DNA from: Marsupella aquatica
Lineage: Eukaryota; Plantae; Marchantiophyta
Direction: 5' to 3'
Length of the DNA stretch: 64,000 bases
Assembly (NCBI GenBank): GCA_973895155.1
Contig: OZ316897.1
Location: 12,585,375-12,649,374 of the forward strand
In this document: positions 20,851 to 55,842 of the stretch, piece after piece
Numbering within the stretch: position 1 is the stretch's first letter
Layout of the letters: each line of letters starts with the position of its first letter
The notes under the pieces: generated by a model
The model's database searches: none
Told to the model about the DNA's origin: nothing
What the model saw: only the letters and a program-made list of their open reading frames with translations
Position numbers and translations under genes: made by a program

Positions 20851-22680
20851 CTAGCAAAAATGCCCGTGCATTGCACAAGTGTTCTTGGGGCCATATTGTT
20901 AATTGTTGGTGCAATAATACCTGTGCATGACACTAAAATGTCAAGACAAGGCCAAATTGCAAGTGAGGAGAATTGCAAGTGAGGAGTGTACGTAGTTCTG
21001 ACCATCATGAGATTATAAGTTGTGCCATGAACTCTTAGTTTAGTGTAACAATACCCAACCATGCATTGCACATAACAGCTTTTTACTAACCTGTCCCCCA
21101 AATCACCCAAATTTACTGACGTGCCCCCAAAACAATTTTATTTATCACCTTGCCCCCCATTTCATATGTGGGTTAACTTTTAACTGTGATTGGGTTTAGG
21201 GTTCAACGTGGCGAGTCGCCATAGGCTGTCTGAGCTTAACTCACCGGGCTCTCCTTTAGCCCCCCTTCCATTCTCCCCTGCCCGACCCCATCGCTGGCCC
21301 AGGAGGAGTTAAACGCGACCCCACTAAAGAGTCGCCCTTCCATGCCGTCCCAAAAATGAGTGGCTGCCTACCGAGGGTCACTTTTAAAGGGGCGACCAGT
21401 TTTCAGGAGGGATGACGGGGAGGGGGAAGGCCTACGATGGTGGTCGGGCAGGGGTGAAGGGAAGGGGGGCTAAAGGAGAGCCTGGCAACTCAGTCTATGG
21501 TGACTCGTCACGTTACACTCTAAACCTGATTGATCGTGAGTTAAGAGTTAACCCAATACAAAATGGGGGCAAGGTGATAGATAACTTTCTTTCAGGGGCA
21601 CGTCAGTAAATTTGGGTGATTTGGGGGACAGTTAGTGAAAAGCTGTTGCACATAAATGCCATAGTAAGGTAAAGAATTGCAAGTGAGATAAAAGAGTGTC
21701 GTTGTGCTGATAATTATGTTCTTTGTTCAGTCATGTCCATGGGTGCAGAAGCTAGTCTCACTTTTTTGGTGAACATTGTTGTTGTGATAGTGTTATTGTC
21801 AAGGAGACTGAGGGTACAATGTGAGGATCCAAGAAGGGTGACAACCCAGTGTCGCTCACAGCCATGACATTGCAAAGTCCAACACAGTTAATTGTGGGAC
21901 AGCCTAGGAGAAAATGTTTTCAGGTAAAATCTTTTCCTCTTTTCTCGTTTTATGTTACATTTAATGTTTATACTAAAAAAATTTATTTTACAATTTACAA
22001 TTTATTTCTTAATTCTGTTGTCATTGCAAGCAGGTGCCAGAAGACGTAGGGTAGCTTGGGCAGACAAGTAAGATGAAGCTTTTTGATGAAGGGCCAAGAT
22101 TGGCTCCCACCTTTTTGGTAGGGATCATTTATTATAGGGCTGCTTAAATCCAATTTTGAGACTTCTAAGAAAAACAGGGTGTAAAAAACCAAATTTATGT
22201 ATATTCCAAGAATATTCCAAATTAATAGGGGTAAAAACATTTAAAAAACCCTTTTTTCTTAAGTGCTAAGGTCGCAGGTGATGGGGGGTTACCATAAACT
22301 TAGTGAGGGTTTATTGGGTTTAGTGAAATACTTTTTAATTTTGTTGAAGAACATTAGGGTTATTTTAATCCAATTTTGAGAATTATAAGAATCATCTTTA
22401 TGGTTTTTTAAAATCGAATATGGGAATATTCTGGGAATATTCCATTAAGTTAGGGGTAAAACTAAAAAAAATTATTGACTTAAATTTTAGGGTGTTTATT
22501 CCCCCAAAACTTTGAGAGTGATATGGGACCCCTTGGAATCAATACTAAGATAATGTCATTGTAGAGGAAAACAGCCCAAAAACAACAAAACAGTAGGCAA
22601 CAAGAGAGAAAACTGATTGAAGCAAAGATAATCTTTTTTACATGTAAATGAATGAATGTCTTACTCTTATTCTAGAGAGA
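20851..22680 (-). mobile_element. Probable non-autonomous Helitron (3' end at 20851; 5' end tentative at 22680)
   Basis: CTAGCAAAAATGCCCGTGCATTGCAC is the reverse complement of a typical plant Helitron 3' end (GC hairpin, ~8-nt spacer, CTAG). The candidate 5' end reads TCTCTCTAGAATAAGAG on the minus strand. The A|T target is not cleanly preserved. Confidence 0.45.
21076..21645. mobile_element. Mutator-like MITE (570 bp) with long TIRs and 10-bp TSD TTGCACATAA
   Basis: CAGCTTTTTACTAAC-CTGTCCCCCAAATCACCCAAATTTACTGACGTGCCCC... mirrors ...GGGGCACGTCAGTAAATTTGGGTGATTTGGGGGACAGTTAGTGAAAAGCTG. TTGCACATAA lies at 21066-21075 and 21646-21655. Long TIRs with a 9-11 bp TSD are diagnostic of MULEs. Confidence 0.9.
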
Positions 22681-28447: not shown

Positions 28448-30685
28448 TCATAGATGTTCCTCAAGATTCCATAACTGCAGAGAATTAGAGTTGTCGCCGA
28501 TCGACGGTATACTTTGTGTCGACCTCAACACAAAGTCAGGCTTGGAGTTGGGAATCGAAGGGACTTGAGCTTCTCCAGCGAGTACCTGAACGACATGTCT
28601 CATAGAAGGACGAGATTCTGGGTCTGGATGAGAACAAAGCAACCCCAAAGTCAACACCACCTCCATCCAGTGGGTGTCATACTCACCCTCCAGCCGCCTG
28701 TCCGCCGTACTAAGCAGATCATTTTCACTGAACTTCTTCCACACCCAATCCACCAGAAGGACTTCCTCTTTTGGGACACGATGTAAGAGAACTTTCCTCC
28801 CACAAGCAACCTCCAGGACTACGGCGCCGAAAGCAAACACATCTGTTTTATCTGTGAATCTGCCCGAAATGGCAGCCTCTGGAGCAATGTATCCATATGT
28901 TCCAGCCACCAGAGTGGTAGAAGCTGCCCTTTGATGATCCACCAAACGAGCAAGACCAAAGTCCCCGAGCTTAGGATTCCACTCATTGTCTAGCATGATA
29001 TTGGAAGACTTGACATCCCTATGGATGACTTGTTGCTTCCAACCTTGGTGCAGGTAGTCCAAGGCAGCTGCAGTGCCAGTCACAATCTTGAACCTTTGCG
29101 ACCATGACAAACATGGCATTTTGATCTGGACAGCAGGCTCAAACAACACCTTGTCCAGACTTCCATTTGGCATTAGCTCATACACAATCACAAATTTCGC
29201 TTTGGATGCATCCTTACACCATCCACACAGCTGGATGAGATTCCGATGTCTGAGCTGGCTTATAATTGAAACCTCAGCCATGAACTCCTTCTGGCCCTGG
29301 GTTGAGTCAGCTTTGATTTTCTTCACTGCTACTTCGATACCAGACGAGCTTAAAACTCCTCGATACACACTCCCAAATCCTCCTTGCCCCAATTTTGTTT
29401 CCTCGCTAAAGCCTCGAGTTGCAGCACTGAGCTCCTTGTAGCTGAATCTCTCAGGCATGCCTATTAAAATTTCAGTGGTTGAATCTTCTTCACTACTTGA
29501 TCTTCTCCCTAGTAGACCGCCCCTGTACCTTCCTTTACGATAAGCTCTTCTCTGTACAAAAAATGGAACAATCCAAATGCAAGCTAGGAGAACATTAACA
29601 GGTATACCCACAGCTATTCCAAGTAGAAGGCCCCAATTTGTACCTCGTGATTTAACTGGAGGTGAGCTGGACGGAGGTGTGCTAGATGGGGCTGGGCTAG
29701 ATGGAAGGATCCCGTATGATCCAAATGTCCAGTTTCCGACATAGAAGTTGCTCCTGGCGCCACCATTTCCACTCGAGAAACCCACCCACATGTATTCGTC
29801 CAACATATTGAAAAGGTTAACTGTGTAGCTCAGCAGGGGAATGACGGGTCTAGAGTTGTTTCTGCTTACTCTCGCCTCCAGCTGGTTGGTCGAGCCGCTG
29901 TACTCCACCCACGCATAAATCAGATAATCTGGATCAGGCAGGTACACGCCCGCATCTGACGCATTTGCAGCTACACTGTAAGTAAGGTTCGAGTTGAGGT
30001 TGAAGCTTAGATGGTTTTCACTTATATCATAAGCGGGATATTCCGGGTTGTAAAACGTATCGAACTCCACGACGACGGCTTTGAAATCCGGCAACGCACT
30101 GTTATTTGCGTTGAATATCCAGAAAGATTCCCCATGACCACCATGTCGTGAGTTATTTGAACTGATCACGAAGGTCATGCCATCCCCGGACCCCCTCGTG
30201 GTTTCATTTCTGACTTGCGTTATTGTGAAGCTCGTGTTGAAGGAAGCCGACTGCGCTGTTCTAGGGTCCTTCAATCTCACTGGTTCGTGGTAGTATGCGA
30301 GTCCACCTAGCCCTCTAGAAGCCGAAAGATCCTCATATGTTAAGGACAACATTCCAGAGTGCACTTGGCTGATTGGATCCCCTGGGTACACGTGAGCACC
30401 ATCACGGCAGATGATATTGCTCGAACAATCGTAATCAATGCCTGCGAAGTGGAAGGTGACGCCGGTCTGGCCAGAAACTTGTCTGAAGGATTTTACTGCG
30501 AAAAGGACGAGAAAGAAGTAATATGTGCAGAAGGTCTTCGTGATGCATGGCTGGAGGATAGATGAAGTTCGTGATTTAGCTGATTTTGGATTCTTGGATG
30601 CATCACCAACGTTCTTCCTGCTGCAACCAACGAAGCCGAATTGGCCCAATAATGCCAAGTTGTCGATCGTTCTGGTGTAGATCAT
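28448..30685 (-). CDS. L-type (legume) lectin receptor-like kinase, intronless, RD kinase
   Basis: The ORF is uninterrupted, with the first ATG at 30685. It has a hydrophobic signal-like segment (YYFFLVLFAV), lectin motifs (SFNTSF, GDGMTFVIS, VVVEFDTF, MWVGFSSG), a Ser/Pro stalk and a TM helix (GLLLGIAVGIPVNVLLACIWIV). Kinase motifs are LGQGGFG, VAVKK, HRDVKSSN, DFG, GYIAPE and DVFAFG. Confidence 0.95.
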   Translation of the reverse strand: MIYTRTIDNLALLGQFGFVGCSRKNVGDASKNPKSAKSRTSSILQPCITKTFCTYYFFLVLFAVKSFRQVSGQTGVTFHFAGIDYDCSSNIICRDGAHVYPGDPISQVHSGMLSLTYEDLSASRGLGGLAYYHEPVRLKDPRTAQSASFNTSFTITQVRNETTRGSGDGMTFVISSNNSRHGGHGESFWIFNANNSALPDFKAVVVEFDTFYNPEYPAYDISENHLSFNLNSNLTYSVAANASDAGVYLPDPDYLIYAWVEYSGSTNQLEARVSRNNSRPVIPLLSYTVNLFNMLDEYMWVGFSSGNGGARSNFYVGNWTFGSYGILPSSPAPSSTPPSSSPPVKSRGTNWGLLLGIAVGIPVNVLLACIWIVPFFVQRRAYRKGRYRGGLLGRRSSSEEDSTTEILIGMPERFSYKELSAATRGFSEETKLGQGGFGSVYRGVLSSSGIEVAVKKIKADSTQGQKEFMAEVSIISQLRHRNLIQLCGWCKDASKAKFVIVYELMPNGSLDKVLFEPAVQIKMPCLSWSQRFKIVTGTAAALDYLHQGWKQQVIHRDVKSSNIMLDNEWNPKLGDFGLARLVDHQRAASTTLVAGTYGYIAPEAAISGRFTDKTDVFAFGAVVLEVACGRKVLLHRVPKEEVLLVDWVWKKFSENDLLSTADRRLEGEYDTHWMEVVLTLGLLCSHPDPESRPSMRHVVQVLAGEAQVPSIPNSKPDFVLRSTQSIPSIGDNSNSLQLWNLEEHL

Positions 30686-33600
30686 ATTCGCTGCCAAGGG
30701 GTTGGTCCTTACTCAATTCCCGGGGATCTTGCATATATATATGGACTGTGAGTTTGTCACCCAGCCTGCACCCCAATCCATGCATATAATTATGCTACAC
30801 TAATGGAAGCATTGACGGTCCTGAGGGTTGAACACCGGATACCAATTTAGTGTTCCGGAGTGGAGCTTTTACCATATATGTCTATTTGTCTATTCGTCCG
30901 AGACATCACCTCGCCTGCCTACGACGTATCCATCGTAGAAAATATCAAACCAGTCGTTCACTAGTTCTACCAAGGAGAGAAGAAGACGCTAGCCATCGAT
31001 CTGCTGCAAGTCGAGATCTCCTCTTGCGGCTCGAATTGAAAGAATCGTGGCAATGGTTCCATCATCACAGTGTACACAGATAAGACCCCTGAACGAAAAA
31101 CGAGAAGTGGAGTAGAGTAGGACAGAGGGAAGCACACTACAAACCTGATCCGCTTGATCAGTCATTGCGATAGAGGTGGTGGCCCCCACTCCATGCTCTC
31201 TCGGTTGGACTCGCATCTCCGAGGCGCGTCATCTGAGAGAAAGAGCTAGTCTGGCAAGCTCCTTGCGTCATTGTTCCCTAAACAAAGCTGCTGCAGGGTG
31301 CTCCGGATGCCGAAAGGAGCTCAAACCTTCACAGCAATTAACTGCTCTTGTTCCGTTGGCAGAAAACGACGACCATCCAGATATCTAACCCACTGGCATC
31401 CTCATCGGAAGGAGAGCGACAGATCGACGACAAGATAGTACGTTGAGCAGCAGAGGCCCAGGAAAAACGTCAATGCGTCCTCTGTCAGATGGGTTGAAGT
31501 CTTGTGACTTCAGTCTGCTCAATATATATATAACTGCAAAGGAACGAACACGCAAAACAAAAATGTACAATAGAATGACTGATCCCAGAAGACACAATGA
31601 TCTACTCGTCAACTTCTCCAAGGAAATCGTGCTGCGTACATGATGGCAAACCAGAATCGAGGACCGTCTCCTTAAGCTCCCTCTCGATAGTATGTCCTAC
31701 TGAATGCCACAGGCCCCACATAGGACTAACTCAGCTTGGCGAAAAGCGTATTTCTTCGGTGGGTTTCTTCCGTAAAACGAGACGACGCGGACTTTGACCG
31801 GAGGCTGCTAAGCTGTTTGACGAGGCCAGGGGAGATGGCAGCAAAGAGGAGAGCTCCCCCTCTTTGAGTGGGTGCCAGTAGCGCTGCCATTAATTCGAAG
31901 GTCTGGGGAGGGGGTGAACAGAGGTAGTAGCATCTACAGTAGCTTAACCGTGACCGAGTCTGCAAACGATGTTACTTAAAACCCTCTAATATTTCTAGAT
32001 TAATTTAGATCTTGGTCTCAATTTTTTTGTAAGAAAATGATGCTCCCATGGACCACAAGGTTGGTCTGCGAAAACCCCCATGGACCACATTTCCAAATTT
32101 GAGTTGAATTATAATACTTGATGTTCAGAAATATAAACATTTTCTACCTATTACGACAAGTGAATTTTTGGCCATTTTATTTGACTTATTGATCATAGAA
32201 TGGGGAGAGTTTTCATTGTGTTTGATATGAAATATTAGTGCTTGTGTATTTTTGTCTCTCCTCTTTCTCTAGCTACATTGCAGTTGGACAATTAAAAGTT
32301 ATCTTAATACTTTAGAGCCCAAAACTCTCATGGACCACCAATATGTGGTACACCTGAGCACAGCACAGTGTCCAACATGGACTTCACTATCAAGATGCGT
32401 GGATATTCCTGTGTATATTCCTACCATTACATTCTCTCATTGGGTAGATCGAGCACCAAGCCTCAATTTTTGCCTTGATTACTTCCCACATGTGATTTGT
32501 AGTCAGCCCCTACTCTCCACTACGTGCAGGGCAGGGCGATCATTGACTGAAAATACATTAACTAATTAACTTGTCTCTATGTCAGTAGCTCCTTCACGAG
32601 AGAACCTATAGTATATATAATAGCAGCCAGCATCTTTGCCTTTATTCTGGCCATCTGCCTTTATTTTTGCCACCCACAGTTGCATGGGTCATTGACAAAT
32701 TTAAAAGAAACAGTAATTTAGTTGTCCCATTATTGTAGTCAGCGAGAACCTAGCCTGCATTTTAGCCCCGGTCATTGACAAAAGAGCACAATCACCAAGT
32801 TGTCTCGTTATACATAAAACCTACTGTAGCCAGAATTTTAGCCTTCCTTCTTGTCACGTTCCTAGAGGCTCCTATGATCTATGCACCACAAGTTCTTATG
32901 ACCCTCCCCACCCCGGTTTAACCTGACAGGCAAGTTGTTGGCTTGTCGGGCACATAAAACCGTCAAATGACGGCCCCAAAACGGCCAATTTGATGTATAT
33001 TCCCTGTTATTCTTCCGAACTCCCTCGGTTCCCAACCCTGCCCCCCAAACCCGTCCCGGACCCCTCCCCGGCCTCCCGAACCCTCCCGAACCCCTTGTGA
33101 TGCCTAGCCAGGAATCACTAGGCCGTGTAAAAAGGTAAAACCAGGTGGTATACACTAAGACCACTAGTATAAGGAGGAAAACACGAGAAAATATAAACAA
33201 TTAAGGGTATCCATGGAACCCAAGCCGAGGCCGCGAGTAATAGGCACAACGGCCACTAAGGGGCACGATTAGGGTTAGGGTATGCTAAGTATCGGCGGCT
33301 GTAGGTACTCAGCGACCAAGTCAGGCAAGGCAGGCCCGGGGGGGAGGGGGTAAGGGAGGTCACCAAGAGTGATGGCTCATTCACGAACATTGATCGAGCA
33401 GATTGAGAGGAGAAGCAACGACTGTCAGCTGTGAAGGTGAACACGGTGGGCGGAAGCAGATACCAAGCAACGACATAAGGAGGGAATGAGCAACGTCAAT
33501 CAAGTTGCACACTTCTAGGGATGCCTATTCGAACGGGCAATTGAGTACATTAAGACCTACCAGGAGGAGGAGCCGGAAAGAGCAGCCCGAGAACGATAGG

Positions 33601-35449
33601 AGCTTGCTTGGCTGTGGGAATTGCAGAAGTCTGCCTTCCTAGGAGGAGAACTCATCAAGGCTCAATTCTTGTGGACGCCTACTGCCGATGAGCTCGACGA
33701 TCTTCTATTTCGAGAGAACATAATCATCGGCATCCGGCAGGCCATCAACAATTGCAACGACGAACATTGGGACCTGAATGGTTGCACGAAGGCGTCAACA
33801 AAAGCAGTAGTGTTGGGGGAGTTGTCCGGAGCGGCCAAAATGAAGAGGAAGATGGCCAACAACAAAGAAACCACACCGGCCAAAAGAACGAGGTAGGCGG
33901 CATCGAGAAATCCGGTTGAGTAAGGGAGATAGACGCGGGAGGAAGCCGAGCAACAAGAGGTCGATCCAGTCAATGCCATCCCCACCAGAGATGATACATG
34001 GAAGGGTTGGGCGACGATCCTACCGCCGGCAGTGCAGTTACATTTTGCATCGGATGAGGATGCATGCTTTACAGCCATGCAAGCCAAGAAGTACCAAGGC
34101 TTCATGGCCGGATCGGGCTTGGAAGCCTTTGTTAGATTACCGTGGCTGAAGTCGGAGGTGTCGAAATCAAACTTGTTGGAATTCGTGGGATCATGGGACC
34201 ACGAGTCCAAGTCAACCAAGATCTACGGGGGGACTTCTATCTCACTCCCAAGGTGATTGCCAAAGTGTTTGGCTTGCCGATGGGCAACAAGACCACAGGT
34301 AGACACCCGGAAGAACTTGTTGGACAAGGAGTTTAGATCGTTCCCCGGGCCATCAACAAAGAATGGCTTCTTCTGAAACACCTGCACATTGGAGAAATGA
34401 TCAATTTCTTGCGGGTAACAATGCATTGCAACATGGCGAGGCCGGAGATCGGCAAGGCACAAGTTTACCTGGCAGAGAGGCCAGATCCAAGCCGGGACTA
34501 CAACGGGTACCTCCTCACCCAACTGAAGAAGATCTTGAAGGAGGAACAACAAGTGATAGGCCAGGGGAGCGTGTCTCGGCTTGGTTATCACATGCCGTTG
34601 TTGTGCCAGTATGCCCGGAGTCAGACCTTTGCGCCAGTACTCCCCCTGCAAGCAAGGGCGCCGAAAGAGGAGTTGGAGCCAAGGCCGCCAACAAGGAAGC
34701 CTGAACCACCCGGCAGCCCCACGATAGCGTAGATCTTTTGGCCGACTCCAGAACCCATGCCATAGCAGCAACCGGCTATGCAGAGCCTCTTGTAGATGCT
34801 GTAGAAAGAGAAGCCAGTAATTGCAGCACAGGCACAAGCATAGGTACAGGGCATGGTTGGGGAAGGAGGCACCACGAGACCCACCAGAGCAGATCCCTTT
34901 GCCGGGGCCGTGGAGAAAAGGAGGCTGGAAAACGAGCCGGGGGTGCGGATGTACGTGGGAGCCTCGATTCCAGAACTTAAGGGGCAAGAACCCAAGGTTC
35001 CCAAGAGTAAAGCTACATCATCAATTATCAGTGTTTTTCATCAGTCAACCTGATATCAGTCGCCACATCATCTTGTGATGCCTAGCCAGGAATCACTGGG
35101 CTAGTTTTAGGGGAAAAGGGAAGTGTACCCTAGAAACACCTTAGTATAGTTACATAAATAAGGAAAATATAAACAATTAAGGGTGACTATGGAACCCGTG
35201 CCAAGGCCGGAAGTAAGGACGCTAGGGGAGAGAACACGATTAGGGTTAGGGCAGGCTAAGTGCCGGCGGCTAGGGGTAACCAATGGGAGGGAGAACGAGA
35301 GGAGGAGAGGGGTAAGGACCGCTCACGAGGAATAGTGGCTCATTTGCAAGTACAAACTGGGCAGGCGACTACGGGCGGCCAACTACTGTCAACTGCTTAG
35401 GCAAGCGCTCAGGGTGGGAACAGATACCGACTATCAACTCGAGAAGGGT

Positions 35450-38400
35450 ATGAGCAACGTCAATCAAGTGGCATATTTTTGGGGATGCCTGTTCAAACGG
35501 GCAACTGAGTACATTGGGACTTACGAGGACGAAGAATCGGAGAGAGCAGCTCGAGAACGGCAGGAGCGCACCCGATTGTGGGAGCTGCAGAAAGCTGCCT
35601 TCTTAGGAGGAGAACTCATCAAGGCTGAATTCCTATGGACGCCTACTGGCAACGAGCTAGACGACCTGCTGTTTTGCGAAGACAGAGTCGTCGGTATCCG
35701 AGAAGCCATCAAATGCTGCAACGACATACACTGGGAGTTGAAGGGTAGCACGGAGGGCTGGACAAAGGCAACCGTGCTAGGAGAGACATCCATGGCAGCC
35801 GAGATGAAGAGGAAGGGGAACAACAACGAAGAGGCCACCCCGGCAAAAAGAACGAGGTCAGCGGCACCAAAGAAGCCAGCAGAAAAGGAGAGCAGGAGGT
35901 AGAGAGAAGCCGAGGAGGAGGAGGTCGACCCCATCAACGCCATTCCAACAAGAGATGACACCTGGAAAGGCTGGGCGGTGATTCTCCCCGAGGAAGTGCA
36001 ATTATACTTTGCACGGGAGGAGGATGCATGCTTTACGGCTATGCAGACTCAGAAATACCAGGGCTTCATGGCTGGATCCGGCTTGGAAGCCTTCGTAAGG
36101 TTACCGTGGCTAAAGCCGGAGGTGCTGGATTTAGACTTACTAGAATTCGTGGGATCATGGGAGTCCGAGACCAATTCCACAAGGGTGTATGGGAAGGATT
36201 TCTATCTCACTCCCTAGGTGATTGCCGAAGTGTTTGGCTTGCCAAAGGGCAATAAGACCAAGGTAGATACCAGGAAGACTTTGCCAGACAAGGAGTTCCG
36301 GTCATTTCCCGGGCCTTCAACAAAGAATGGCTTCTTCCGAAACACCTGCACCAACCCGCATATAGGAGAGATGATCGATTTCTTGCGCGTGACCATGCAT
36401 TGCAACTGGCCAAGACCAGAGATCGGCAAGGCACAAGTCTATCTGGCAGAGAGGCCAGACCCAAGCCGGGACTACAATGGTTACCTCCTCACTCAACTAA
36501 AGAAGATCTTGAAGGAGGAACAGCTGGTAATCGGCAAGGGAAGCGTGTCCCGGCTTGGCTATCACGTACCGCTATTATGCCGGTATGCCCGAAGTAAGAC
36601 CTTTGCCCCGGTACTTCCCCTACAGGCAAGGGCACCAGAGGAGGTTCCGGAACAGAGGCCGGCAACGGAGAAACCCAACCCGCCCGACAGTCCTACAATC
36701 GAGCAGGTGTTTAGGCCAAGGACGGAGGACTTGCCGATGCAGCAACCAGGCATGCAGAATCTGCTGAAATTGCTGGAGAAGGAAAAGAGAATGGCAACGG
36801 CAACGGCAACGGCACCAATGCAGGACACTACTCCAGAGGTAGGCCTAAGCCGGCTTACAAGGGAAAACCCCTTTAATGGGGTCAAGGAGAGAAGGAGGCC
36901 GGAACACGAGCCGGGAGTCCGGATGTATGTAGGAGCCTCAAGTCCCGAAGCCGAGGAGAAGCAGGCCGTAGCTCCCGGCCACAACAAGGAGAACAAGAGA
37001 TCAACATGAAAGCTGGAGGAGGAACCAAGACCGGTGAGAGGTGAAGCCGTGTTCACGGCAAAACCAGGAGAACAGCGGGAGAAGCCGGTAGTCCAAGCCG
37101 AGGAGGAGGCGGTAGAGGACTACAGCAATGATGACTCCGGCTACGGGTCGGATCATCATGTTCCAGGAGTAAGGACCTGTGGCCGGTTCATCCCCACGCT
37201 CCCAAGAGTAGTTCGAGGAGACCCGAGCCAGCAGAGCAGCCCCGAGTCTCCCCCACCAGATGTCGCTCCCCCGAGCTTTGACGGCATAAAACAGACGGCG
37301 CAGGAATTTCAGGAGCAAATCAGGGAGGAAGAGGAGGCAGCCCTGGCTAGAGAAAAGGATTTACCAGGAGGAGAATGGCCAGAGGACATCAGGCAGCTTG
37401 CAGAAAAATGAAGCATCCCTCCAGCCACAATAGAAGACATCCGCAAGGCGGCTTGGGAACACAGGCCACGGTGGATGATGCCGATGACTTCTACTTCCTC
37501 CACCTATGCTAAAAATAGAGCCATGGAGTACGGGGAAATGTGTGGAGAGCTGGCACTCAGCATCTTTGGGGAGGAGTTGGAGCAAGGACCCTTTTTTCAG
37601 AGGGAGATGTTGGAGAAGCGCCAATTAGAAGAAGCGGTGGCTTTGGAAAGAAGCAAGAAGGACGAGGTCATCCGTCGGCTTAGGGCAAGGGAAGCCGAAA
37701 TCAAAGACGTGAGGGCGGCCAAGAAAGCCCAAGATGAGCTGTGGATTAAGCGGCATGAGCTAAATATCATGCAGCGCCAATTGGATACCGCACAGTCTGA
37801 TAATCGGATTGTCGAGAATAAACTGACTCAAACCCAAGGAGAGTTGGCCGATGCGATCAAGGAGCGGGAGAAGTGGAAGCGGGAGCTAAGGGATGCAGAG
37901 GAGGCCCACATAACAGCCAACAACCGGGCCATGGTGGAGACCCAGAGAAGGGAAAGGGCATTGAAGGGGGAGCTCGAGGTTATCCGCGGAGCCCTTGAGC
38001 AGAAGGAGGCCGAGTTAGGGAAATCCTATCAAGGGATTATTGCGCTGCAGCAGGAGCTTGCGTCCCTGACGGCCAGCTTCAAGGCCGACCTGCGTGAGAA
38101 GGACAATATGCTCGATCAGACTTACGCCAAGATGAACCAGATGGAGTCTGTCATCATTGCAGAGCTCGACAAGGAGTTAAGAGCAACCCGGGAGGAGAGA
38201 GCTGCGTTTAAGAAGGAATTGGAGGAAGCCCACAGGGAGCTGGAGGAAGCCCACAGGGAGCTGGAGGAAGCCCAGAAGGAGCTGGAGGAGGCGCGCAAGG
38301 ACCTGGACAAAGTGCAGGAAGAGTTGGAGGAAAGCACGTGGAAGCTAGAGAACTTACAACGATGAGCCGACAACCAAACGGAGCGGCTGAAGAAACAAGC

Positions 38401-38914
38401 CGCAGTATTTAAGTGCTTGGCTTCATCACGACCAACTCAAATTGAGGCCACTAAGATACCAGGAGTGGTACTGGCCGAAGGACAAGCCGCGCCATTTGCA
38501 CCAGTGCTGGAAGTAAGTGGGAAGGGGAAGGGGCCAGCTGCCGAACCAGAAAAGAAGAAGAAGCGGAAACCGTCAGGGTCAGGGAGTAATACGGCTCCAC
38601 AGGCCGTGGTGACCAAGGAGGTAAACCCAGCACCGACCTCAGGCAGGGTTACGGATGAAGATCCAACTACCCTAGAAGAAGGGGATGACAAAGCCGAGGC
38701 CAGGATACTCGGTAATGAAGCCGAGGTACCCAATCTGCCACTTGAGTGTGCAGGGGAGGCCGTAGCCGAGGTCGATGTCGGGGGTGGACCCAGTCAGGCC
38801 GATGGAGAGTTGACTCAGTCAAGGGCAGGTAATCTGTCAGAGAACAAACCTACGGCAGTGGTTGAGGAGGAAGCGTTGGGGGCGTCCACTAAAGAACAGA
38901 CACCGCTGCCATGA
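35450..38914 (+). pseudogene. ~1154-codon element-encoded protein: PMD/Transposase_32-like region, acidic linker, long coiled coil, low-complexity tail; five in-frame stops, no frameshift
   Basis: The ORF-track pieces at 35414, 35978, 36218, 37034, 37475 and 38417 are all in one frame, separated only by single stops (35900, 36215, 37007, 37409, 38363). GLEAFVRLPW...LLEFVGSW...TRVYGKDFYLTP.VIAEVFGLP resembles the plant-mobile-domain/Transposase_32 pattern (inference). The segment 37600-38365 is heptad-rich. Confidence 0.7.
38221..38290 (+). repeat. 21-bp tandem repeat (GAGGAAGCCCACAGGGAGCTG) x3, each unit encoding one heptad EEAHREL
   Basis: Visible directly in the DNA and in the translation ELEEAHRELEEAHRELEEAQKELEE. 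Confidence 0.9.
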
Positions 38915-41900
38915 CGGTGGTGGAGGGCCGCTCCTTTCAAGGAGGGCGGACGTGGAGGGAGAAGGCGTGAGTGGGCAGAGCGGGCTCAGATCTCTAAGTT
39001 TAGGATTAGGATCAGGACTAGGAGGCGGCCCTGACACTTAGCTTAGTGGGATGGCGGTTCCACTGGTAAGAGCAACACTTGTACTCCTGCCTCGCTGTAC
39101 ATAGGTAGATTCAGTTAGGTAGATTCAGTTAGGTAGATTAGGCTTACACTGCAAAGAATTAGGCGGATCCACTACCAGGATAAGTACTTGGGCAGCGGGG
39201 AGCTCAGGGCCTCTTCTTTAGCAAGTTTTTAGTTGCACCAGCCGGGCTGGGATCAAGTAGTAAGAGAAGCTCTCGGTTAGTCATAGAGTGACCCTTGTGT
39301 ATATTCATGTTTCCTCATGCCTAAGAGCTGAATAGAGTTGGCCTCACGGCTTAGTTCGCAGAGCTTGTGTATGAGATGTACTATTTGTATGGCAAGTGCA
39401 TGGTATGACTCAGTCAGAAGGAGTCATTTTGCTATTTGTGTGTCGGATTAACTTGTGTGAAGAGTGCCCACATCAACTAATAGATGAAAGAAAGTAAGCA
39501 AGGGAGTGAGAGTTGGATGTGTCGAGCTGAGAGCGGTCTTAGCGGCTTAACCAAGCCTATTGGGGATCATTCCGGCGGCGGAATCCAAATATACCTAACA
39601 AGAAGGAGGGGAAGACAAGGGAAGGCCTAGATTAGGCCGGCTACGTATCTCATGACCCGATGAAGGATCTGTCCAGTATATGTGTGTAAAATATTAATAG
39701 TAGTAGTAGAAGGAGGTTAGCAGCATCCCATGCCACTAAGCCGCAAAAACGGCCTCGCCAAGCGCGAAACCTGCGGGAATCGACTTGTGAAGGGGGGTTT
39801 CTGGGGTTTAGGGAGCCATGGGACGCACCACACATCTCAGAGAGGCTGCCAAGTTGGGGTGCCAAGAAAAAATGCGAAAAAAATCCAAATTTTTTTTCTC
39901 AAAATTTGATGGAGAAAAAAAAACTTTTTTTGAATTTTTTTTCTATATGTGTCCATACTGTACGGGCACCACATCTCGGCAAGGCCCACCGAGATGGCCA
40001 GGTGTCCGTATGGTACGGATGTGGAATTTTGTCGGAATCTTTTTTTCTGGAAATTTTCAAAAAAATAATTTTAATTTTTTTTCTCCTGTTTTTTTGGTCC
40101 GTACGCCAATCTTGGCGAGGTCAGCTGAGATGCGCGGAAGTGCAAAGACCCCATCTCAGCTGCTCAGCTGAGATTCAGAAATTTCAAGGCGGCAAAACTG
40201 ATAAGTGATATCAACGACTGGTATCAGTTATCCGCCACTGATAATTGATGATCCTTGCTACCCCAGGTTCCTAGTCATGTTAAGGAGAGAGGAAGCCGAG
40301 TGTGGGAGATGGAAGAGAGACCCGCACACGCATAGTTTCCGGCAAGATGCCGCGTTTGCGGCTAGTCCAAGAGAGGAGCCGCATGCACCAGTTTTCCAGG
40401 CCGGGAGGGAGGGCATGGAGGAATACAACGAAGATGACTTTGGCTACGGGTCGGATCGTTCGGTACCAGGGGTGCGGACCTGTGGCCGCTTTGTCCCCAC
40501 ACTTCCAAGAGACCCAAAACAGCAAAGAAGCCCGGAGTCTCCCCCACCAGACGTCCCTGCTCCAAATTACCATGGGAGAAAACAAGCCAACCAGGAGGTG
40601 CAGGAGCAACTCAGAGATCTGGAGAGGGCAACCCTGGCCAAGGAGAAGGATTTGCCAGGCAGAAGATGGTTGGAGGACATTCGGCGGCTTGCAGAGGACC
40701 AAGCCGGGCCCTTGCCCACGTTTGACGAGATTTGCCGCGTTGGGAGATGCCAACATCTCCTAACCACTCCACCTACGCACATTCCAGAGCCCTAGAGTAC
40801 AGGAAGATGTGCGGATTACTTGCCCTTGACGTCTTTGGCAAGGAGTTGGAGTCGGGGCCTTTTCTCAATAGGGAGAGGTCGGAGAAAAGCCGGTTAGAGG
40901 AAGCACTGGCCTTGGAGAGGATGAAGAAGGAGGAGGTCATCCGGCGACTTAGAGAGAAGGAAGCCGAGGTTGGAGATCTAAAGGCAGCCAAGCAGGCTCA
41001 GGACGAGCTGCGGGTTAGGAGGCATGAGATAAGCATCATGCAGGGGTAACTGGATACGGCCAAGGCTGATAGCCAGTTAATTAAGAGTAAACTTGCCCAG
41101 ACCCAGGGGCATTTGGCCGAGGCCCTCAAGGAGAAGGAGAAGTGGAAGCAGGAGCTTAAAAACACAGATTGAAGCAGCTCACCTAATGGTCTTCAACAAA
41201 GCCATGGCCGAGGCGCAAAGGAAGGAGCGGGCACTGAAGGAGGAGATCAAAGAATTCTGTAGGGCCTTCAATAAAAAAAGACAACTTAGATAAGGCCTGC
41301 AGGAGCGTCGACAAGTTAAAGGAGGACCTTGAAACCCTGTCGGCCAACTATCAAGCCGAACTGCGTAAGAAGGATGACATGCTTGATCAAACCTACGAGA
41401 CGATGAATAAGATAGAGTTTGATGTCGTCCATGAGCTCAACGCAAAGCTGAAAGCAACCCAGGAGGAGAGGGCGGCCTTACGGAAGGAGTTGGACAAAAA
41501 CCTGAAGGAGTTGGAGGATGCCACACAAAAATTAGAGAACATGTAGAGGCGGGCGGACAACCAAACGGAGCAGTTGAAGAAACTGTCCGAGGAGTTAAAT
41601 CGGCAAGCAGCAACAAGTGGACCCCCGGTGGCAGCAACAAGGTTGCAAGGCGTAGTACTGACCGAGTGACAAGCTGAGGTACCCTCAGCTTGTCACTTGG
41701 ACAGTACCTTTGCCGGAAGTAAGTGCAAGGGGAAGGCACCGGCTGCCATGGAAGGGAAGGACAAGAAGAAGCAAAAACCTTTCGGGTCAAGGAGCAACAC
41801 GGTTCCTCAAGCCACTGTGGTTGAGGTAGAGAGCATGGGACCAACCTTATGTGAGGTGGTGGCTGTCAAAGTGGCAGTCTTGGAGGTAGGCCAAGAAGAC

Positions 41901-42565
41901 CAGCTGGGTGAGGCCATGACGGGCACTGACTCAAGGTTGCCAACCATTGATCGGCATCAAATGCAACCTTGGGAAGATGAGACAACCCGACTCATAGGAC
42001 AAACCTATGAGGAGGACCACTACGGCAAGATGGCCGATGCCGGGACTGACTGTGCCGAAGCCGCATGAGCAGACCCCCCACTAGCAAAAGCCGGGGAAGC
42101 AGAAGTCGGGGAAGCAGAAGCCGGAGAAGCCGAAGCCAAAGTAGGAGTGGGGCCCGATCACGCCTAGGATGGGTTGACCCAGTCAGGAGCGGGTAACCTG
42201 TCAGAGGATGGGATGCCTACATTGGCTGCCAAGGAGGGATTGGGGGCGTCCATTGAGGGCCAGCCACCCGTGTTATGACAGTGGAGGGGGCCCGTACCTT
42301 TTAGGGAGGACGGATGTGGAGGTAGGAGGCGTGAGTGGGCAGAGCGGGCGCAGACCTCCAAATTTAGGATTAGGATTAGGACCAAGAAGCAGCCCTGACA
42401 CTTAGATTAGTGGGATTGCGGATCCACTGGTAAGAGCGACACTTGTGCTCTTGCCCCGCTGTACATAGGTAGATTCTAATTAGAGGTAGATTTGGCTTAC
42501 GCAACAAGGAAATAGGTAGGTGCGCTACAAGGATAAATATCTGTGCAACGTGGACTTCAGGGCCT

Positions 42566-42736
42566 TGTGGTGCGTCCCATGGCTCCATAAACCCAGAAAA
42601 CCCCCCTTCACAAGTTGATTCCCGCAGGTTTCACTCCTGGCGAGGCCGGTTTCGCGGCTTATTGGCATGGGACGCTGCTAACCTCCTTCTACTACTACTA
42701 TTAACATTTTACACACATATACTGGACAGATCCTTT
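42566..42736 (-). mobile_element. Copy C: right terminus of the same TG...CA family, inserted in reverse orientation into copy A and truncated
   Basis: 42566-42735 (TGTGGTGCGTCCCATGGCTCC...GGACAGATCCTT) is a near reverse complement of 39663-39832. Confidence 0.8.
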
Positions 42737-43025: not shown

Positions 43026-43779
43026 CTCGGGGGGTTGACTATCAAAAATCTTAGGAACCACGTGTGATCCAAAATAGGTATTTTGGACAGAAATTAGCTC
43101 ATTTTTATTTATTTATTTATTCAAAAAAGGCGAAGCGCCAAAAACCACACAAGGGGGCAAAACCCACCCAAGCAAGACAAGGAGGCCACAACGCCAAGGA
43201 CCAAGCAGCCAACAAGAACCCCCTAGTCAGGCCACTCAACCCTAAAGATCCAGGTCATGATGGCCCCTAAAGCAAACCAATTTGGATCCGTAGTGTAAAA
43301 TTTTTATAAAGTAAAATAGGTAATGAATATTGAAAATATTCCCATTATAAAATAGGTGTGTTTCAAAATGAATGAGTATTCACAATAGCAACACCAACAT
43401 GATGTGCACCAAGAAGTTCATCGTCAACGGCACCTGTTTCAAATGGGACCGTGATAACACCTGTTGCAACCTTCCGACAATGAGAAGCGTCCTCGCGGGG
43501 TTAACTAAGTGTATATTTTGGGGTACCACGTGCAATCCTAGCCTAATATAAATAGACTTATTTTATAAAGAAAATATTCCAAGAATATTCTCTATTTTCA
43601 ATATTAATAACCTATTTTACTTTATAAAGGGTATATATTAAAGAATATTCTATAAACACGAGTTTATAATACCTTCTTTTGCCCTCCTACATTTTTTAAA
43701 AATTTAGTTAAAATCTGTCAAAAATACCTATTTTGGATCGCACGTGGTTCCTAAGATTTTTGATAGTCAACCCCCCGAG
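43026..43779. repeat. 66-bp inverted repeat pair (43026-43091 / 43714-43779)
   Basis: CTCGGGGGGTTGACTATCAAAAATCTTAGGAACCACGTGTGATCCAAAATAGGTATTTTGGACAGA occurs with its near-perfect reverse complement. No clear TSD. Confidence 0.8.
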
Positions 43780-49306: not shown

Positions 49307-52300
49307 CACTAGTACATTTTCAGCATTTTTCCGATGCTCTGATATCGCGAGAGCTCAGCCGTCCGATACTAAACAAATCGGAAATGCATCGGAATTGTCC
49401 GACTTCAATAGTAACGCAATTTGCCATTATTTTTGAATCGCATGTTAACCTTCCAATACAAATGTAAACGGTCCTTCCTTCCATTAGTTTTAGAATTGGA
49501 TGTCTTCCGATAAGATTAGTAACGGAAATGTATCGGACAAGTATCCGATAACTGTTAAGAGGGGTCCAATGCAGACTGAATCGGACAAGGTTTCGGAATT
49601 AAGGTAAGATGTTTCCGACAATTATGCGATGTTCATTGTATCGGATATGGTGTGGAAAATGAATACTCATAACTTTATTAAGAAATCTGGTCCCTTTCAT
49701 AGTAGAGGGAACATGAAATACAACAATGATACATACAAAATAAACATATGGAGGGGTCCTACGCGATTAATCCCAAGTTACACTAGCTAGCAAGGACCTC
49801 AAGGCTCGGGGTCCAAATCTTCAACTACAATCGCTCCTGGATGATGGATCGTGATCGTGGCATATAAGTCATGACAATGGACCACTCAGGATCATCGGGA
49901 TACGGAAGATAGAAGGCCTACTCAAGATGGTCGGGGAATGCAAATGGATTAGAGGTTCTCCAAGTTGAGCTAATGACACTATTTGCACCTGTCTTCAACC
50001 GTGTGAACCCACAAGCATCCTCTTTGCAAGTTCGGTTATGGCCAACAAGGTTCATCCAAAACCATTTGCACTTCAACAGCACCTCCTCCAAAGTGGTGTG
50101 TGCATGATAATGCACTGTCAATATCTCTTCAATCTTGCCATAGTGGGCCACTGTAGAGCGTATTGGATTCCTATCAGATGTGCTACTTTGTGAATCTTGG
50201 GTTAACCAACCCATGACCCCACAATCCTGTGTAGCTGCCCTCTTATCATCAAGCCGCTGCACACGAAAATGCCTTCCCTTTGACCACATGGCGGTCCGAG
50301 TTGTCACCGTGAGTAATGGTCCATGAACCAAGGTGCGAAGGCTGTCTGTAACCAAAGGGAAGTCTGACACGCTCTCCCCTTGCTCCAACAAGGCATCAAT
50401 CTCGGTCAACTTTGCCCTCATGTATGGGACAAACTTGGGGAAGATACGTGGCCGATGACTATTTGCCTTTTCCTCCTCATAAAAAGTTGTCCAATCTCCC
50501 GCAATCTCAGGCAAGTTATACAACATAAATGTAGTGACTTGAAGGCGCTCAGCTGAGCCCAAAAGTCGTTCTCCCTTTGCCCCTGTAAGACGGTCATCTT
50601 CAAAGTCTGCTTCCCTTGATGCCTCGTCTATCCACCCCCTTGGTGCACTGGGATCAAGTGTAGCTACAATGTTTGTACAATAAAACATGCTCTCTGCTCC
50701 AAGATGACGCTCAGCGATGCTACCTTCCACTCTCGCACGATTTGACACATATGACTTCATCACTCCCATAAACCGCTCTACCCAGTACATCCAACGACAA
50801 TGTACCGGCCCTGCAATGCCAACCTCACGCACTAGGTGTAGGGGGAAGTGAACTTGGCCATCAAAGAATGAAGGAGGGAGTGCCCTCTCCAACTTGCACA
50901 ATACCTCCACTCCAAACAGGTCCATAGCTGCAATCTCATCCTCATTCACCTCTTTTTGACACACCCACCTCAAGAGCTTACCTAATGACCACAGGGCATC
51001 ACAAAGATCCTCACTACCCAATCCAATGATGGCCACTGGAATGACATGTTGTAGTAGACGATGGTAATCATGGGTCTTCAAGAAAGCTGGCCAACGTGTA
51101 CAGTCTGGTCCCCCAAATGCCTTGCGCAGATTGGCCCCGTAGCCCGTAGGAAACCTCATTGACCCTATACGATTGCGGAACTCAATCCGCTCGCCTCTGG
51201 TCAATACCCAAGGAGGGTGAATAGTAAGGGGGCCATTAGGGGGATCCATAGATGGCCAAAAACCATGAGGACCATGCATCCCCATCTCCTCACAACTCTC
51301 TCTCCAGTTGTTGTCTTTCTCTCCATATAGATGGCGAATCAATGACCTCCCAACATTCCCCTCAATATGCATAGGGTCAAACAAATGGTTAATTGGCATC
51401 TCAGCCCAATATGGCAGCTTTGACATTAATGCAGACAAACGAGTCATGCCACACCGGGCCAATGGTAAGGGATCATCTGGGTCTGTCACTCTATCCCATA
51501 CCTCCTTCCAATAGCGTGGATCCCTTGGCACTGGTTGAGGGCGTGTGTCTGATTGGCCATCATCCGTGTCATATAAGAATGGGTCACGCCTCCATTCATG
51601 CTCTGGGGGGAGATACTTTGTGTGACCAATGTAAACTATCTTCCGTAGGGTGGTAGACTTAGGGCGTGCCACTCCCTCCAAATCAGGACCACAAGTTGGG
51701 CAGGCTCGGTATCCTGATGTCTGCAACCCAGAGATATATCCAAACCCTACAACACACAATCAATACATTAAACAATAGCCAGGCAAACTTTTATATATAA
51801 CATTATCCTATAGTGTATTATCTACCATAAAAAACCATGCATAATATTGGGGAAGGTATATTTTAACATACCAGGAAGATCATGTATGGTCCACATAACG
51901 ATGGCTTTTAATTTAAATTCATGAGGTAAACCACCCGTCAGCACTCGACCATCATAGTAATCCACTCCCCTCCATAGTTGTTGAAGCTCCTCCAACAATG
52001 GTTGCAAGTAAACATCAATCTTTTTTACTTGCTTGGGGCCTGGGATAATCATTGAGAGCAGCAAATGACCTTTCTTCATGGCCATCCATGGAGGGATGTT
52101 GTAATTTGTAAGGACTACTGGCCAAACTGAGTATGGTTGGGCCTTCCCGGCCAATGCAAAGGGGCTGATCCCATCTGATGCCAAACCTAGTCGTACATGA
52201 CGTGGGTCTGTCTTGAAGTCACCCCATCGGTCCTCCACAAACCTATTTGCAGGTGAGTCCACCATCATACGCATGGTCGGCCGATCTAAACTCATATCTG

Positions 52301-52545
52301 ACCGGTTCTTGGAATGCCACACCATATACTCAGCCAACTCTGCACATCGGTACTGGTGTCGTAATCTGGGGATAAGAGGAAAATACCTCATGACCTTCTG
52401 TGCTACTTTTCCAGTCAGCATGTCCTCTCGATACCTCGGTTGGTCACATGTAGGACATGTAGTGGCATCTTTGTGTTCCCCCCTGAACAGAACACAATCA
52501 TTCACACAAGCATGTATGACTTCGTATTTGAGGCCTATGGATTTC
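49307..52545 (-). mobile_element. CACTA (En/Spm) element 1, left TIR CACTAGTAC at 49307, interrupted by Copia at 52546
   Basis: The CACTA terminus abuts the minisatellite. There are subterminal TCCGAT/ATCGGA repeats (49330-49650) and a transposase gene inside. Confidence 0.85.
49918..52545 (-). pseudogene. TnpD-type CACTA transposase (Transposase_21 + DUF4218 + DUF4216-like), intron 51747-51871, N-terminus cut off by Copia insertion
   Basis: Motifs are HACVNDCVLFRG, RYFPLIPRL, RLGLASDG, YNIPPW, HDLPG, DPMHIEGNV, LKTHDYH, PPSFFD and RWMYWVERFM. A TAG at 49918 replaces the expected Gln in HLE*AFY. Confidence 0.9.
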
Positions 52546-52877
52546 TGTTAAGGATTGCTCTTAGTCTTGTGACTCATAGGTTACGGCACTTAGGCTAACC
52601 ACAGTTAGGATCTTAGCTGAGGTTAGATTAGTCGTGTGTAACCTTGTATATACAAGGGCTAGTGTAAGCCACTGGTGGGTGGTGCTTACTCATTGTAACA
52701 GAACAACAGGAGGAAGAGAGAGAGCATGTGTGTTCGTCTACTCTTGAAGTAAAGCTTGAGTGTTCGTGTGGACATAGCCTTGGAGAAGAGGTGAACCACG
52801 TAGAGATTGTGTCGACTACGTGTGCATGGAATGAGTCATGGTTGTATGGTCGTTGCGAATGACGTCTTAGTTCAACA
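52546..52877 (+). repeat. 5' LTR of Ty1/Copia retrotransposon (332 bp)
   Basis: The termini are TGTTAAG...TTCAACA, a TATA-like TATATA is inside, and the PBS follows immediately. Confidence 0.9.
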
Positions 52878-53912: not shown

Positions 53913-54634
53913 TCGTCGCAGCTCCATCCCTGCCCATTTTGACTCGGTTTTTGACTCCCCGACCCCCTGTGCACTGCCTGGCCCGTCACACGTATAGGCG
54001 ACGCGGATGCGCCTTTTTTAAGACAGTATTTTTGTGTTCTTAAACCCCCTTAGGCCCGGTTTTTTTTAATCCTTTCCAGGCTCCTCATTGGTTAAGCGGC
54101 ATCTCGGGCCCGGTGACCCACCAAATTAACCGCTTGGACAGGGGGAACAGCCCCCTGTGAGACCTGTTTCACAGTCCAAGGAATATTCCGAAAAAACAGA
54201 GAGCTGTTTTTCGGCCTTTAGTCGAAGATTCCAAGGTCCGAACGGTAACTTTTTCGGATCTTTTTTGGCGAGAACGTAGCCACTGAAGCTAGCAACGCGG
54301 TGCACCACTCGATTTCCATTTCCGACGACGGGTGGTACTTGGATATTTTCTTATTCCCCGAGGTGGTCAAAACGGGAGAGAATTTTTGAGTTTTACCCAC
54401 CCCGACCGAAATGTGAAAAAGTTTTTCGTCGGAACTCGGTTTCAATTTTGGATTTCAGCGTTGGCTTGCTAGGTTGGTGGGCTAAGTGGCGGTGATAAGT
54501 TTCAAGGTTTTTGGAAAGTTGCAAAAAACGACATTTTTTCATGATTTGGATTTGAGTCAACGCGAAGGAAGGAAGGAAAAAGCATATAGGGAGCAGCACA
54601 GCAATAGCACGTGGAGAACGTTGGGAGGACAACG

Positions 54635-55842
54635 ATGGCATCCAAGTTTGGAGGTGTCAAGTTTGAGGTGGAAAAATATGATGGGCGCACAGATTATTTG
54701 CTATGGGAGAAGCAGGTTAAGGGAATTCTTCGTGCTATGGGCCTAGATCATCTGCTATCGACTCGGGAGGAGTCTAGCAGTGAGGAGGAGATCCCGTTGA
54801 GGAAATGGAGGCAAGAGCAAGTGATTGCTGTGAATGCGGTTATGCTGTATCTGAAGCCGCATATCATTAAGAAGCTGGACGACTACGAGGATTGCGTATC
54901 CTTATTCAAGGCCCTCAGAGAGAAGTACTACCGAGAGGATGCCTCAGATCGGTTGTACAAGAAGTCTCTCTTGATGAGCTTGAGACTAAAAGAAGGAGGC
55001 AAGCTTCGAGATCACTTGGATGAATTCGACAGCCTAGCTATAGATTTGTCAAATCTTGGCAAGGGAGTGGAAGATGAAGATAAGGCATTGCTTCTTCTCA
55101 GTTCCTTACCCCCATCATATCAAGGTTTGAAGCAGGTTCTCTTGTATAGAGATCTCAAAATCATTTCATATGATGAGGTGGTAAGCTCTTTGTTGTCAGA
55201 TGATGCACAGAAGAAACTGGGTCATGCCCAGACACCATCTTCATCTGGCAGTGCATTGAATGTGAACCGCGGGAGGACTCAACAGCGGATGACTGGTGAA
55301 AACAGGTCCTTTTCACAAAAGTACCCCTCACGGAATAGAGGCAAGGAGAAGGCTCGGTCTAAGTCTAGATCCAGGTCTAGAGAGAAATCTCTAGAAAGGA
55401 AACCAATTATATGCTGGAAATGTAACAAGCCTGGCCACATGAAACGAGACTGTTGAGTCAAGCAGACTCATCAACCATCAGCGAACGCAGCCACTGATGT
55501 TGATATGATTGACTTGCTTGATGATGAAATCTTGTGAAGTCCAGATGTTGCCCTTTGCATTTCATCCAGTAACAACGGTGATGAATGGATTTTAGACTGT
55601 GCCTGTACCTATCATATTTGTTGTATGAAAGAGTTTTTTAGTTCTTACTCAGTATCAACCGGTTCCGTGTTGATGGGGAATGATCATCCTTGTCAAATTA
55701 TTGGAATTGGATCCGTGAAAATTCGGATGTTTGATGGAGCTGTGCGAACAGTGAGTAATGTCAGACACATACCTTACATGAAAAAGAACTTGATTTCTCT
55801 TGGAATGCTGGAAGCAAATGGATGTCGGTGGAGTTCTGCTAA
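54635..55842 (+). pseudogene. Copia gag (UBN2-type, CCHC knuckle) and start of pol (protease region)
   Basis: Motifs are VEKYDGRTDYLLW, LLLSSLPPSY, CWKCNKPGHMKRDC, WILDCACTYHIC, VLMGND and VRHIPYMKKNLISLG. In-frame TGA stops occur at 55454 and 55535. Confidence 0.9.

Follow-up and report, generated by a model that had tools for sequence, protein, structure and literature searches.

We analysed a 64,000-nucleotide stretch of the genome of the liverwort Marsupella aquatica (assembly GCA_973895155.1, contig OZ316897.1, positions 12,585,375 to 12,649,374 of the forward strand; hereafter the window, counted from its first base), and describe a repeated unit of 4,759 bp that lies on the plus strand at 35074-39832 and carries one large open reading frame (ORF), here called the accessory gene. 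An earlier note on this DNA had delimited the unit and offered two readings of it, a giant solo long terminal repeat (LTR) holding a whole gene, or a non-autonomous Ginger-like DNA element moved in trans. Our sequence check found its coordinates, the CATCT duplication and the TGT...ACA-type ends to be exact, and both the integrase-type insertion signature and the anatomy of the unit had been read correctly. The unit is a real, well-bounded feature.

The unit and the nest of repeats around it

The unit, its target-site duplication (TSD) and the elements into which it is nested are arranged as follows; the host element carries terminal inverted repeats (TIRs).

35069-35073 (no strand): left copy of the TSD, CATCT, read in the sequence and present as a single CATCT at empty-site contig joints
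35074-39832 (+): whole unit, 4,759 bp, delimited by sequence and contig evidence; putative solo LTR carrying the accessory gene
35074-35097 (+): left end of the unit, beginning TGTGATGC, with 24 of 24 bases the same as in the older copy; candidate integrase attachment site
39825-39832 (+): right end of the unit, GCACCACA; a sharp family boundary, with unlike flanks beyond it in other copies
39833-39837 (no strand): right copy of the TSD, CATCT, read in the sequence
35017-40252 (no strand): host TIR element of about 470 bp, with a 17-bp perfect inverted repeat at 35017-35033 and 40236-40252; the insertion target, not part of the unit
33096-35016 (+): 5' part of an older copy of the family, 74% identity
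40253-42565 (+): 3' part of the older copy, which breaks off at the equivalent of 39212
42566-42735 (-): third copy, an inverted 170-bp right end with 92% identity to 39663-39832, followed by unrelated sequence

In inverted orientation, the TG...CA termini of the unit agree with each other at seven of their eight outermost bases, with no match farther in, which makes an imperfect inverted repeat of 8 bp, and the terminal bases, TGTGA and TGTGG, fit the pattern TGTNR. Neither an LTR pair nor a long TIR was found within the unit: local alignment of its first 700 bp with its last 1,100 bp scored 22 in direct and 25 in inverted orientation, within the range of 100 shuffles (mean 22, maximum 35), in agreement with the earlier view that no direct repeat joins the two ends. 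The left 17-mer of the unit occurs exactly at 33096 and 35074 and the right 17-mer at 39816 (+) and 42566 (-), where about 0.15 matches would be expected by chance; the recurrence of both ends, claimed for 33096 and 42566, is thus real. The 5-bp TSD was read at the one site where both ends survive, since the older copy is truncated and continues directly into an inverted right end, leaving the inner copy as the only one with two ends and a duplication.

As the earlier note had stated, the unit encodes no recognizable reverse transcriptase (RT), RNase H or integrase: Pfam gave no match to these enzymes in the unit, and a Ty3 Pol query gave zero tblastn matches across the window. A gag-pol region, a primer-binding site (PBS) or a second repeat was not found inside the unit, the PBS scan being made with a few motifs; the window contains no tRNA genes, and Rfam returned no match of note over 32.5-43.5 kb. 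At 35109, a stretch of purines precedes a TG and resembles an internal polypurine tract (PPT); this candidate was dropped, because it is not conserved in the older copy.

Self-comparison resolves the nest into three layers, in which the TIR element of about 470 bp lies within an older copy of the unit's family and the unit lies within the TIR element. The older copy spans 33096-42565 on the same strand, shares 65-75% identity with the unit, and has 20 stop codons in the aligned frame over its two parts as well as frameshifts. At its break point it is joined tail-to-tail to the inverted 170-bp right end, an arrangement that fits an insertion on the opposite strand followed by a deletion. An inverted pseudo-LTR of the Penelope type was also considered for 42566-42735 and was discarded, since fixed TG...CA ends with a 5-bp TSD characterise the family and set it apart from Penelope elements. 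The older copy's ORF also contains a hairpin with 25-bp arms (92%) at 41655-41707, which is not listed for the inner copy. The host TIR element is non-coding, interrupts the older copy, and is itself repeated in public contigs, which include empty-site versions; GCTAC stands directly to its left and 4 bp to its right.

Seven public sequencing runs were listed, two with at least half of the unit's words, and contigs of four were aligned to the unit. At the left end of the unit contig depth climbs steeply, at 39832 it falls, and the whole length between is deeply covered in all four runs. Depth over the bins of the ORF exceeds that over the host TIR element by a factor of 24-91 in all four, a ratio of summed contig depths and not of copy numbers, and in three of the four the last 900 bp surpass the ORF in depth by a factor of 1.7-3.0. 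Contig joints that lead from 35032 or 35051 to 39833, together with loose ends before 39833, represent the host element without the unit and with a single CATCT. Further joints, from 39832/39833 into 37187, 37230 and 38981, suggest that the unit's family often inserts into itself. The unit belongs to a highly repeated family with sharp edges. Its family and the host TIR element are present under three different organism labels (runs X1-X5, of which X5 contains, at a small share, the right end and the host TIR element), and both may therefore predate those three lineages. The terminal patterns of the unit had no match in metagenome contigs or in viral contigs; one 20-bp match in a bacterial genome is attributable to chance, with about 1.1 expected and no alignment beyond the 20 bases. 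Locus searches based on homologues confirmed none of 74 and none of 4 candidates.

The accessory gene and its protein

Within the unit, a single sense gene is flanked by conserved non-coding DNA. Here dN/dS is the ratio of non-synonymous to synonymous substitution rates against the older copy, and U3, R and U5 are the unique 3', repeated and unique 5' regions of an LTR.

35163-35183 (+): conserved block with TATAAA at 35168; predicted promoter of the gene
35235-35251 (+): conserved 17-bp block with two TTAGGG units at its end
35450-38914 (+): accessory ORF, 1,154 codons, no frameshift, dN/dS 0.28
35450-35809 (+): N-terminal domain, amino acids 1-120, dN/dS 0.17; relatives P0007, P0012 and P0018
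35840-35857 (+): basic patch PAKRTR, read in the sequence; candidate nuclear localisation signal
35927-36619 (+): core domain, amino acids 160-390, dN/dS 0.10; helix/beta-hairpin/helix, with a weak lead to the PMD/DUF1985/ATHILA-ORF1/Transposase_32 group
37610-38374 (+): long predicted coiled coil, amino acids 721-975, with a 21-nucleotide heptad repeat, dN/dS 0.23
38552-38572 (+): basic patch KKKKRKP, read in the sequence; candidate nuclear localisation signal
38915-39832 (+): 3' non-coding part, 918 bp; putative end of U3 plus R-U5

The frame of about 1,154 codons that had been reported from the ATG at 35450 was verified, with exactly 1,154 codons running to 38914 and five in-frame stops (35900, 36215, 37007, 37409 and 38363). 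Alignment to the older copy covers 1,095 of the 1,154 codons at a synonymous divergence (dS) of about 1.0, and the dN/dS of the whole ORF is composed of parts that range from the strongly constrained core to a C-terminal tail with 0.76; the accessory ORF was under purifying selection. At two of the five stops most of the contig depth reads another letter (among the matches listed, 40 of 737 rows), so that these two look private to the inner copy. The 3' non-coding DNA is kept even better than the ORF, with 83% identity over 38915-39212 and 92% over the last 170 bp. Upstream of the gene, the AT-rich, TATA-like stretch noticed before near 35165 corresponds to the TATAAA block, which is conserved in the older copy, and the TTAGGG block is a possible element of the telobox type.

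For the full encoded protein, Pfam returned nine weak matches, each of them under the cut-off and almost every one within the coiled coil, and for the 231-amino-acid core it returned no family at E<=10. None of 7,989 candidates matched the full protein at E<=0.001, and an alignment-based search found no match among 2,748 longer proteins. When amino acids 1-400 were compared with 1.84 billion representatives, 20 matches were obtained, none of them with a relevant Pfam family. Organism names are available for 4 of 18 distinct proteins (16 of those matches plus P0029 and P0030), and all four come from the liverwort Calypogeia fissa. Two of these, P0020 and P0029, score 50 and 48 bits on a close profile of 11 rows, where 500 shuffles reached 5.8 at most, and 110 and 109 bits on a wider profile of 15 rows; both profiles were built without any Calypogeia row. 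A profile search among 7,996 candidates gave three matches, one of which is P0030, a fusion of RT, RNase H and integrase to the last 471 amino acids of P0029 (96% identity), whose best match among solved structures is Ty3 Gag-Pol (E 3e-53). As a gene model, P0030 would place a homologous gene 3' of a Ty3 pol and in the same sense.

The coiled coil named in the earlier note stands as a prediction, while the fold check proposed with it yielded weak models: our AlphaFold predictions have a predicted local distance difference test (pLDDT) score of 48 and 55, with 76-84 in the helix/beta-hairpin/helix motif, and Foldseek against the PDB gave a best E of 6.5. Searches of BFVD (best E 0.09), with VIA-align (best Z 3.9) and of PDB sequences (best E 0.82) were likewise without a significant match; these empty searches should not be read as a sign of a new fold. 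In the ESM Atlas, the clusters nearest to the domain of P0020 are unnamed (0.88-0.90; two of three Streptophyta, one without taxa), followed by DUF1985 (0.86) and, at 0.85, a cluster named after PMD, which 20% of its members carry. For the domain of P0011, DUF1985 is nearest by features, and clusters of PMD, ATHILA ORF-1 and Transposase_32 are nearest by structure, with template-modelling (TM) scores of 0.46-0.61 on a low-confidence model of the homologue. Atlas feature scores for the PMD/DUF1985/ATHILA/Transposase_32 group lie at 0.81-0.86, with domains of homologues as the queries. The protein is predicted to be nuclear from its two basic patches and to oligomerise from its coiled coil; that it might affect the chromatin of its element, the earlier note having suggested a chromatin or anti-silencing factor, is a guess by analogy with PMD proteins.

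A probable solo LTR with a gene, or possibly a single unit moved in trans

The unit has TG...CA ends with a short inverted repeat and, around a single unit, a TSD of 5 bp, where 4-5 bp are required of a solo LTR. It works like the solo LTR of a Ty3 element, to which it probably belongs; the family's link to Ty3 Pol runs through one Calypogeia fissa gene model of a distant homologue. Published accounts agree with these dimensions: TSDs of plant LTRs are usually 5 bp (PMC11963269), and LTRs of non-chromoviruses reach about 5 kb (PMC6317226). In Ogre, Retand and Athila, extra ORFs mainly encode PMD, Transposase_28 and Athila ORF-1 domains (PMC6317226). The first of the two earlier readings, a giant solo LTR holding a gene, thus gains support from the homologue joined to Ty3 Pol and from a length under the limit of about 5 kb. 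We consider it somewhat more probable than not that the unit is the solo LTR of a bryophyte Ty3/Gypsy element, and that the U3 of this element has taken in an accessory gene in sense orientation, for which a promoter of its own is predicted.

The history of such an LTR could be as follows. The gene would at first have been an extra ORF in sense orientation, located between pol and the 3' LTR. Priming sites determine where an LTR begins and ends, and plus-strand priming at a polypurine tract 5' of a sense ORF would therefore have shifted this ORF into U3. Reverse transcription would then copy the gene into both LTRs, giving two gene copies per element, and integrase would make the 5-bp TSD. Recombination between two LTRs of 4.76 kb would finally remove gag-pol, so that a single LTR with a single gene stays behind, with R-U5 lying within the conserved last few hundred bases of the unit. 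The protein, with its PMD-group-like core, its coiled coil and its two basic patches, is predicted to serve the element as a nuclear factor in trans, acting most plausibly on the element's chromatin state, which is the weakest step of this proposal.

Several observations weigh against a solo LTR with a gene in U3. Extra ORFs of plant elements have been placed in the internal region, outside the LTR (PMC7264820, PMC11963269, PMC6317226, PMC3485330). Three ends in the window border on foreign sequence that can be read (33096, 35074/39832 and 42566), and at none of them was a PBS, PPT or gag-pol seen beside the copy. In runs X2-X4, the loose ends at the right end (10 rows with 86 contigs, among the matches listed) all extend into unlike sequence and have no shared consensus beyond it, and their flank agreement of 0.39 (n=28), 0.40 (n=13) and 0.43 (n=10) resembles the 0.36, 0.41 and 0.43 of simulated unrelated flanks. 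P0030 is a single, automatically made gene model; it comes from a distant relative (about 25% identity) and lacks the core domain, its fusion could join nested elements, and its gene order would suit an internal extra ORF as well as an ORF in an LTR. Finally, the full protein, its core and 20 relatives had no Pfam match to PMD (PF10536), Transposase_32 (PF20167), ATHILA (PF03078) or DUF1985, and all structure rows of the Atlas lie beneath the naming bar of the tool. The PMD-like label of the earlier note is thus not a Pfam result; sub-threshold Atlas leads from two liverwort homologues weakly support "PMD-group-like" as a consistent lead, not as a result.

The flank comparison, which covers the right end and treats contigs as unweighted in its simulation, shows that most sampled right ends do not adjoin a common PBS or PPT. 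It is a weak test, as any junction that copies have in common is represented by a small number of contigs, and short overlaps seem, judging from the low counts, to have kept contigs out of the alignment. Its value for n=28 and one for n=7 (0.51) lie slightly above the random band and leave room for about 3-5 and 2 shared flanks, respectively.

Genes that lie in U3 and are doubled into both LTRs by reverse transcription are familiar from sag of mouse mammary tumour virus and nef of human immunodeficiency virus; these differ from the unit's gene in belonging to animal retroviruses, in their size of about 200-320 codons and in encoding unrelated proteins. Among plants, the rice elements Retrosat2 and FRetro3 are chromovirus-related. 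They resemble the unit in their LTRs of more than 3.2 kb, 10-bp inverted termini, a ratio of solo to intact elements of 429:162 and an extra ORF, and differ in that this ORF0 lies upstream of gag-pol and is treated apart from the LTR (PMC3485330). Solo LTRs of non-chromovirus Ty3/Gypsy elements of the OTA superclade (Athila, Tat, Ogre, Retand) share TG...CA ends, a 5-bp TSD, a size of up to about 5 kb, and extra ORFs with PMD or Athila ORF-1 (PMC6317226). Unlike the internal extra ORFs of Ogre, Retand and Athila, the accessory ORF sits between both terminal motifs of one unit that has no LTR pair. The non-chromovirus clades Phygy and Selgy, named from a moss and a lycophyte, differ in being described as short, with interiors that are almost entirely coding (PMC6317226). 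The ORFs gene23 of Grande and TRP28 of Retand are likewise accessory genes with their own promoter and a nuclear product (PMC7264820, PMC11963269), whereas they are antisense, internal (between pol and the 3' LTR), angiosperm-specific and lost upon solo-LTR formation; ORF2 of PvRetro13 carries an SMC domain (PMC11963269/PMC7264820). Gypsy-encoded PMD-A and the host proteins MAIN and MAIL1 possibly share a fold group with the unit's protein, and host PMD proteins act in silencing, although the PMDs described are from angiosperms and the unit's protein has no Pfam PMD match (PMC5418596). The literature searched, which left most subscription journals outside its scope, yielded no report of a plant LTR that holds a gene, the comparison being made without Repbase or Dfam; the excerpt of bioRxiv 10.64898/2026.09.17.752431 holds nothing on the unit's family.

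Alternatively, the unit might be non-autonomous and be moved as one piece of DNA by an integrase-type enzyme in trans, either as a DNA transposon with LTR-like ends and without long TIRs or through the Ty3 integrase itself acting on it, with the gene as cargo kept for helping the family; we regard this as possible but rather doubtful. Such movement would agree with the unlike flanks at every visible end of the unit, yet De Bruijn contigs collapse a shared PBS junction, and unlike flanks are thus expected of a solo-rich LTR family too. Both ends are kept better than the interior (24 of 24 bases and 92%), and the greater depth of the last 900 bp in three of four runs could mean that relatives share the ends and not the interior, or merely reflect better conservation. 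The protein family is linked to one enzyme alone, a Ty3 Pol with RT, and no partner transposase was found in the window with the Ty3 Pol query.

The name "Ginger-like", given to this second reading by the earlier note, fails the defining TIR test, as the 8 bp of the unit compare with 40-270 bp in Ginger1 (4-bp TSD), 45-297 bp in Ginger2/TDD (4-5-bp TSD, 5 bp in TDD-4/5; PMC2836005) and 100-150 bp in GingerRoot (6-bp TSD; PMC6839031). Ginger and GingerRoot elements share TGTNR-type ends and a similar size range with the unit, and GingerRoot-like sequences have been reported in mosses (PMC6839031), but their TIRs measure 40-297 bp, their TSDs are mostly 4 or 6 bp, and their autonomous copies carry a transposase gene, of which the unit has none. 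The TGTNR termini do not discriminate, because Gypsy LTRs share them (PMC2836005), and the 5-bp TSD, read at one site with both ends, fits the TDD exception alone among Ginger1 and Ginger2. Membership in GingerRoot was tried separately and failed on the 8-bp inverted ends and the 5-bp TSD. The unit is not a member of Ginger1, Ginger2/TDD or GingerRoot. A more radical form, in which the unit is never paired and a retrotransposon-derived gene cassette is amplified to high copy number as a mobile element of its own, as a single TG...CA unit with neither TIRs nor an LTR pair, by an integrase in trans, appears unlikely; if true, the unit would stand, as an intermediate still alive today, between LTR retrotransposons on one side and DNA transposons of the Ginger type on the other, and would spread a chromatin-type factor.

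Read on the other strand, the unit would be the solo LTR of an element with an antisense gene in a very long R/U5, comparable to the antisense extra ORFs of Retand and Grande. Non-chromovirus elements of plants commonly have extra ORFs in antisense orientation that are driven by promoters of their own (PMC7264820, PMC11963269), and close to the right end of the unit the minus strand contains pyrimidine-rich tracts. We consider this reading very unlikely, as the homologue in the Calypogeia model has the same sense as pol. An R/U5 of several kilobases would moreover require, by textbook knowledge, minus-strand strong-stop DNA of several kilobases. Least probable of all is a deletion derivative of an ordinary LTR element with decayed or partly lost terminal repeats: extra ORFs are normally internal and short LTRs would then have flanked this one, but the unit ends show no repeat trace, each terminal 17-mer occurs once per unit, the older copy (dS about 1.0) has the same architecture and the full length is deeply covered in all four runs, so that this explanation is largely refuted already.

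Neighbouring features and biological meaning

Outside the nest, an uninterrupted frame of 754 codons lies 2.4 kb away at 28448-30712 (-), which reads like an L-type lectin receptor kinase by motifs in its translation. Two regions at 49918-52547 (-) and 58474-63532 (-) presumably encode CACTA-type transposases, again by motifs in their translations, and 54608-55456 (+) is presumably a Copia-type gag fragment with a terminal zinc knuckle. Three pairs of inverted repeats, at 43026-43779 (81 bp, 91%), 15938-16959 (266 bp, 86%) and 21074-21647 (232 bp, 79%), are likely miniature inverted-repeat transposable elements (MITEs) or foldback elements.

The formation of solo LTRs is the host's main way to disarm LTR retrotransposons. 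If the LTR holds a 1,154-codon gene under a promoter of its own, this recombination removes the enzymes and leaves the trans-acting gene, and the family could retain many stand-alone gene copies, one wherever the element has been. Units of 4.8 kb like this one are missed by LTR-pair finders and would be annotated as host genes. If the reading as a solo LTR with a gene in U3 is true, U3 can grow by taking in an extra ORF, and PMD-group genes would have a direct route out of the retrotransposon context towards domestication, a question raised by MAIN and MAIL1 (PMC5418596).

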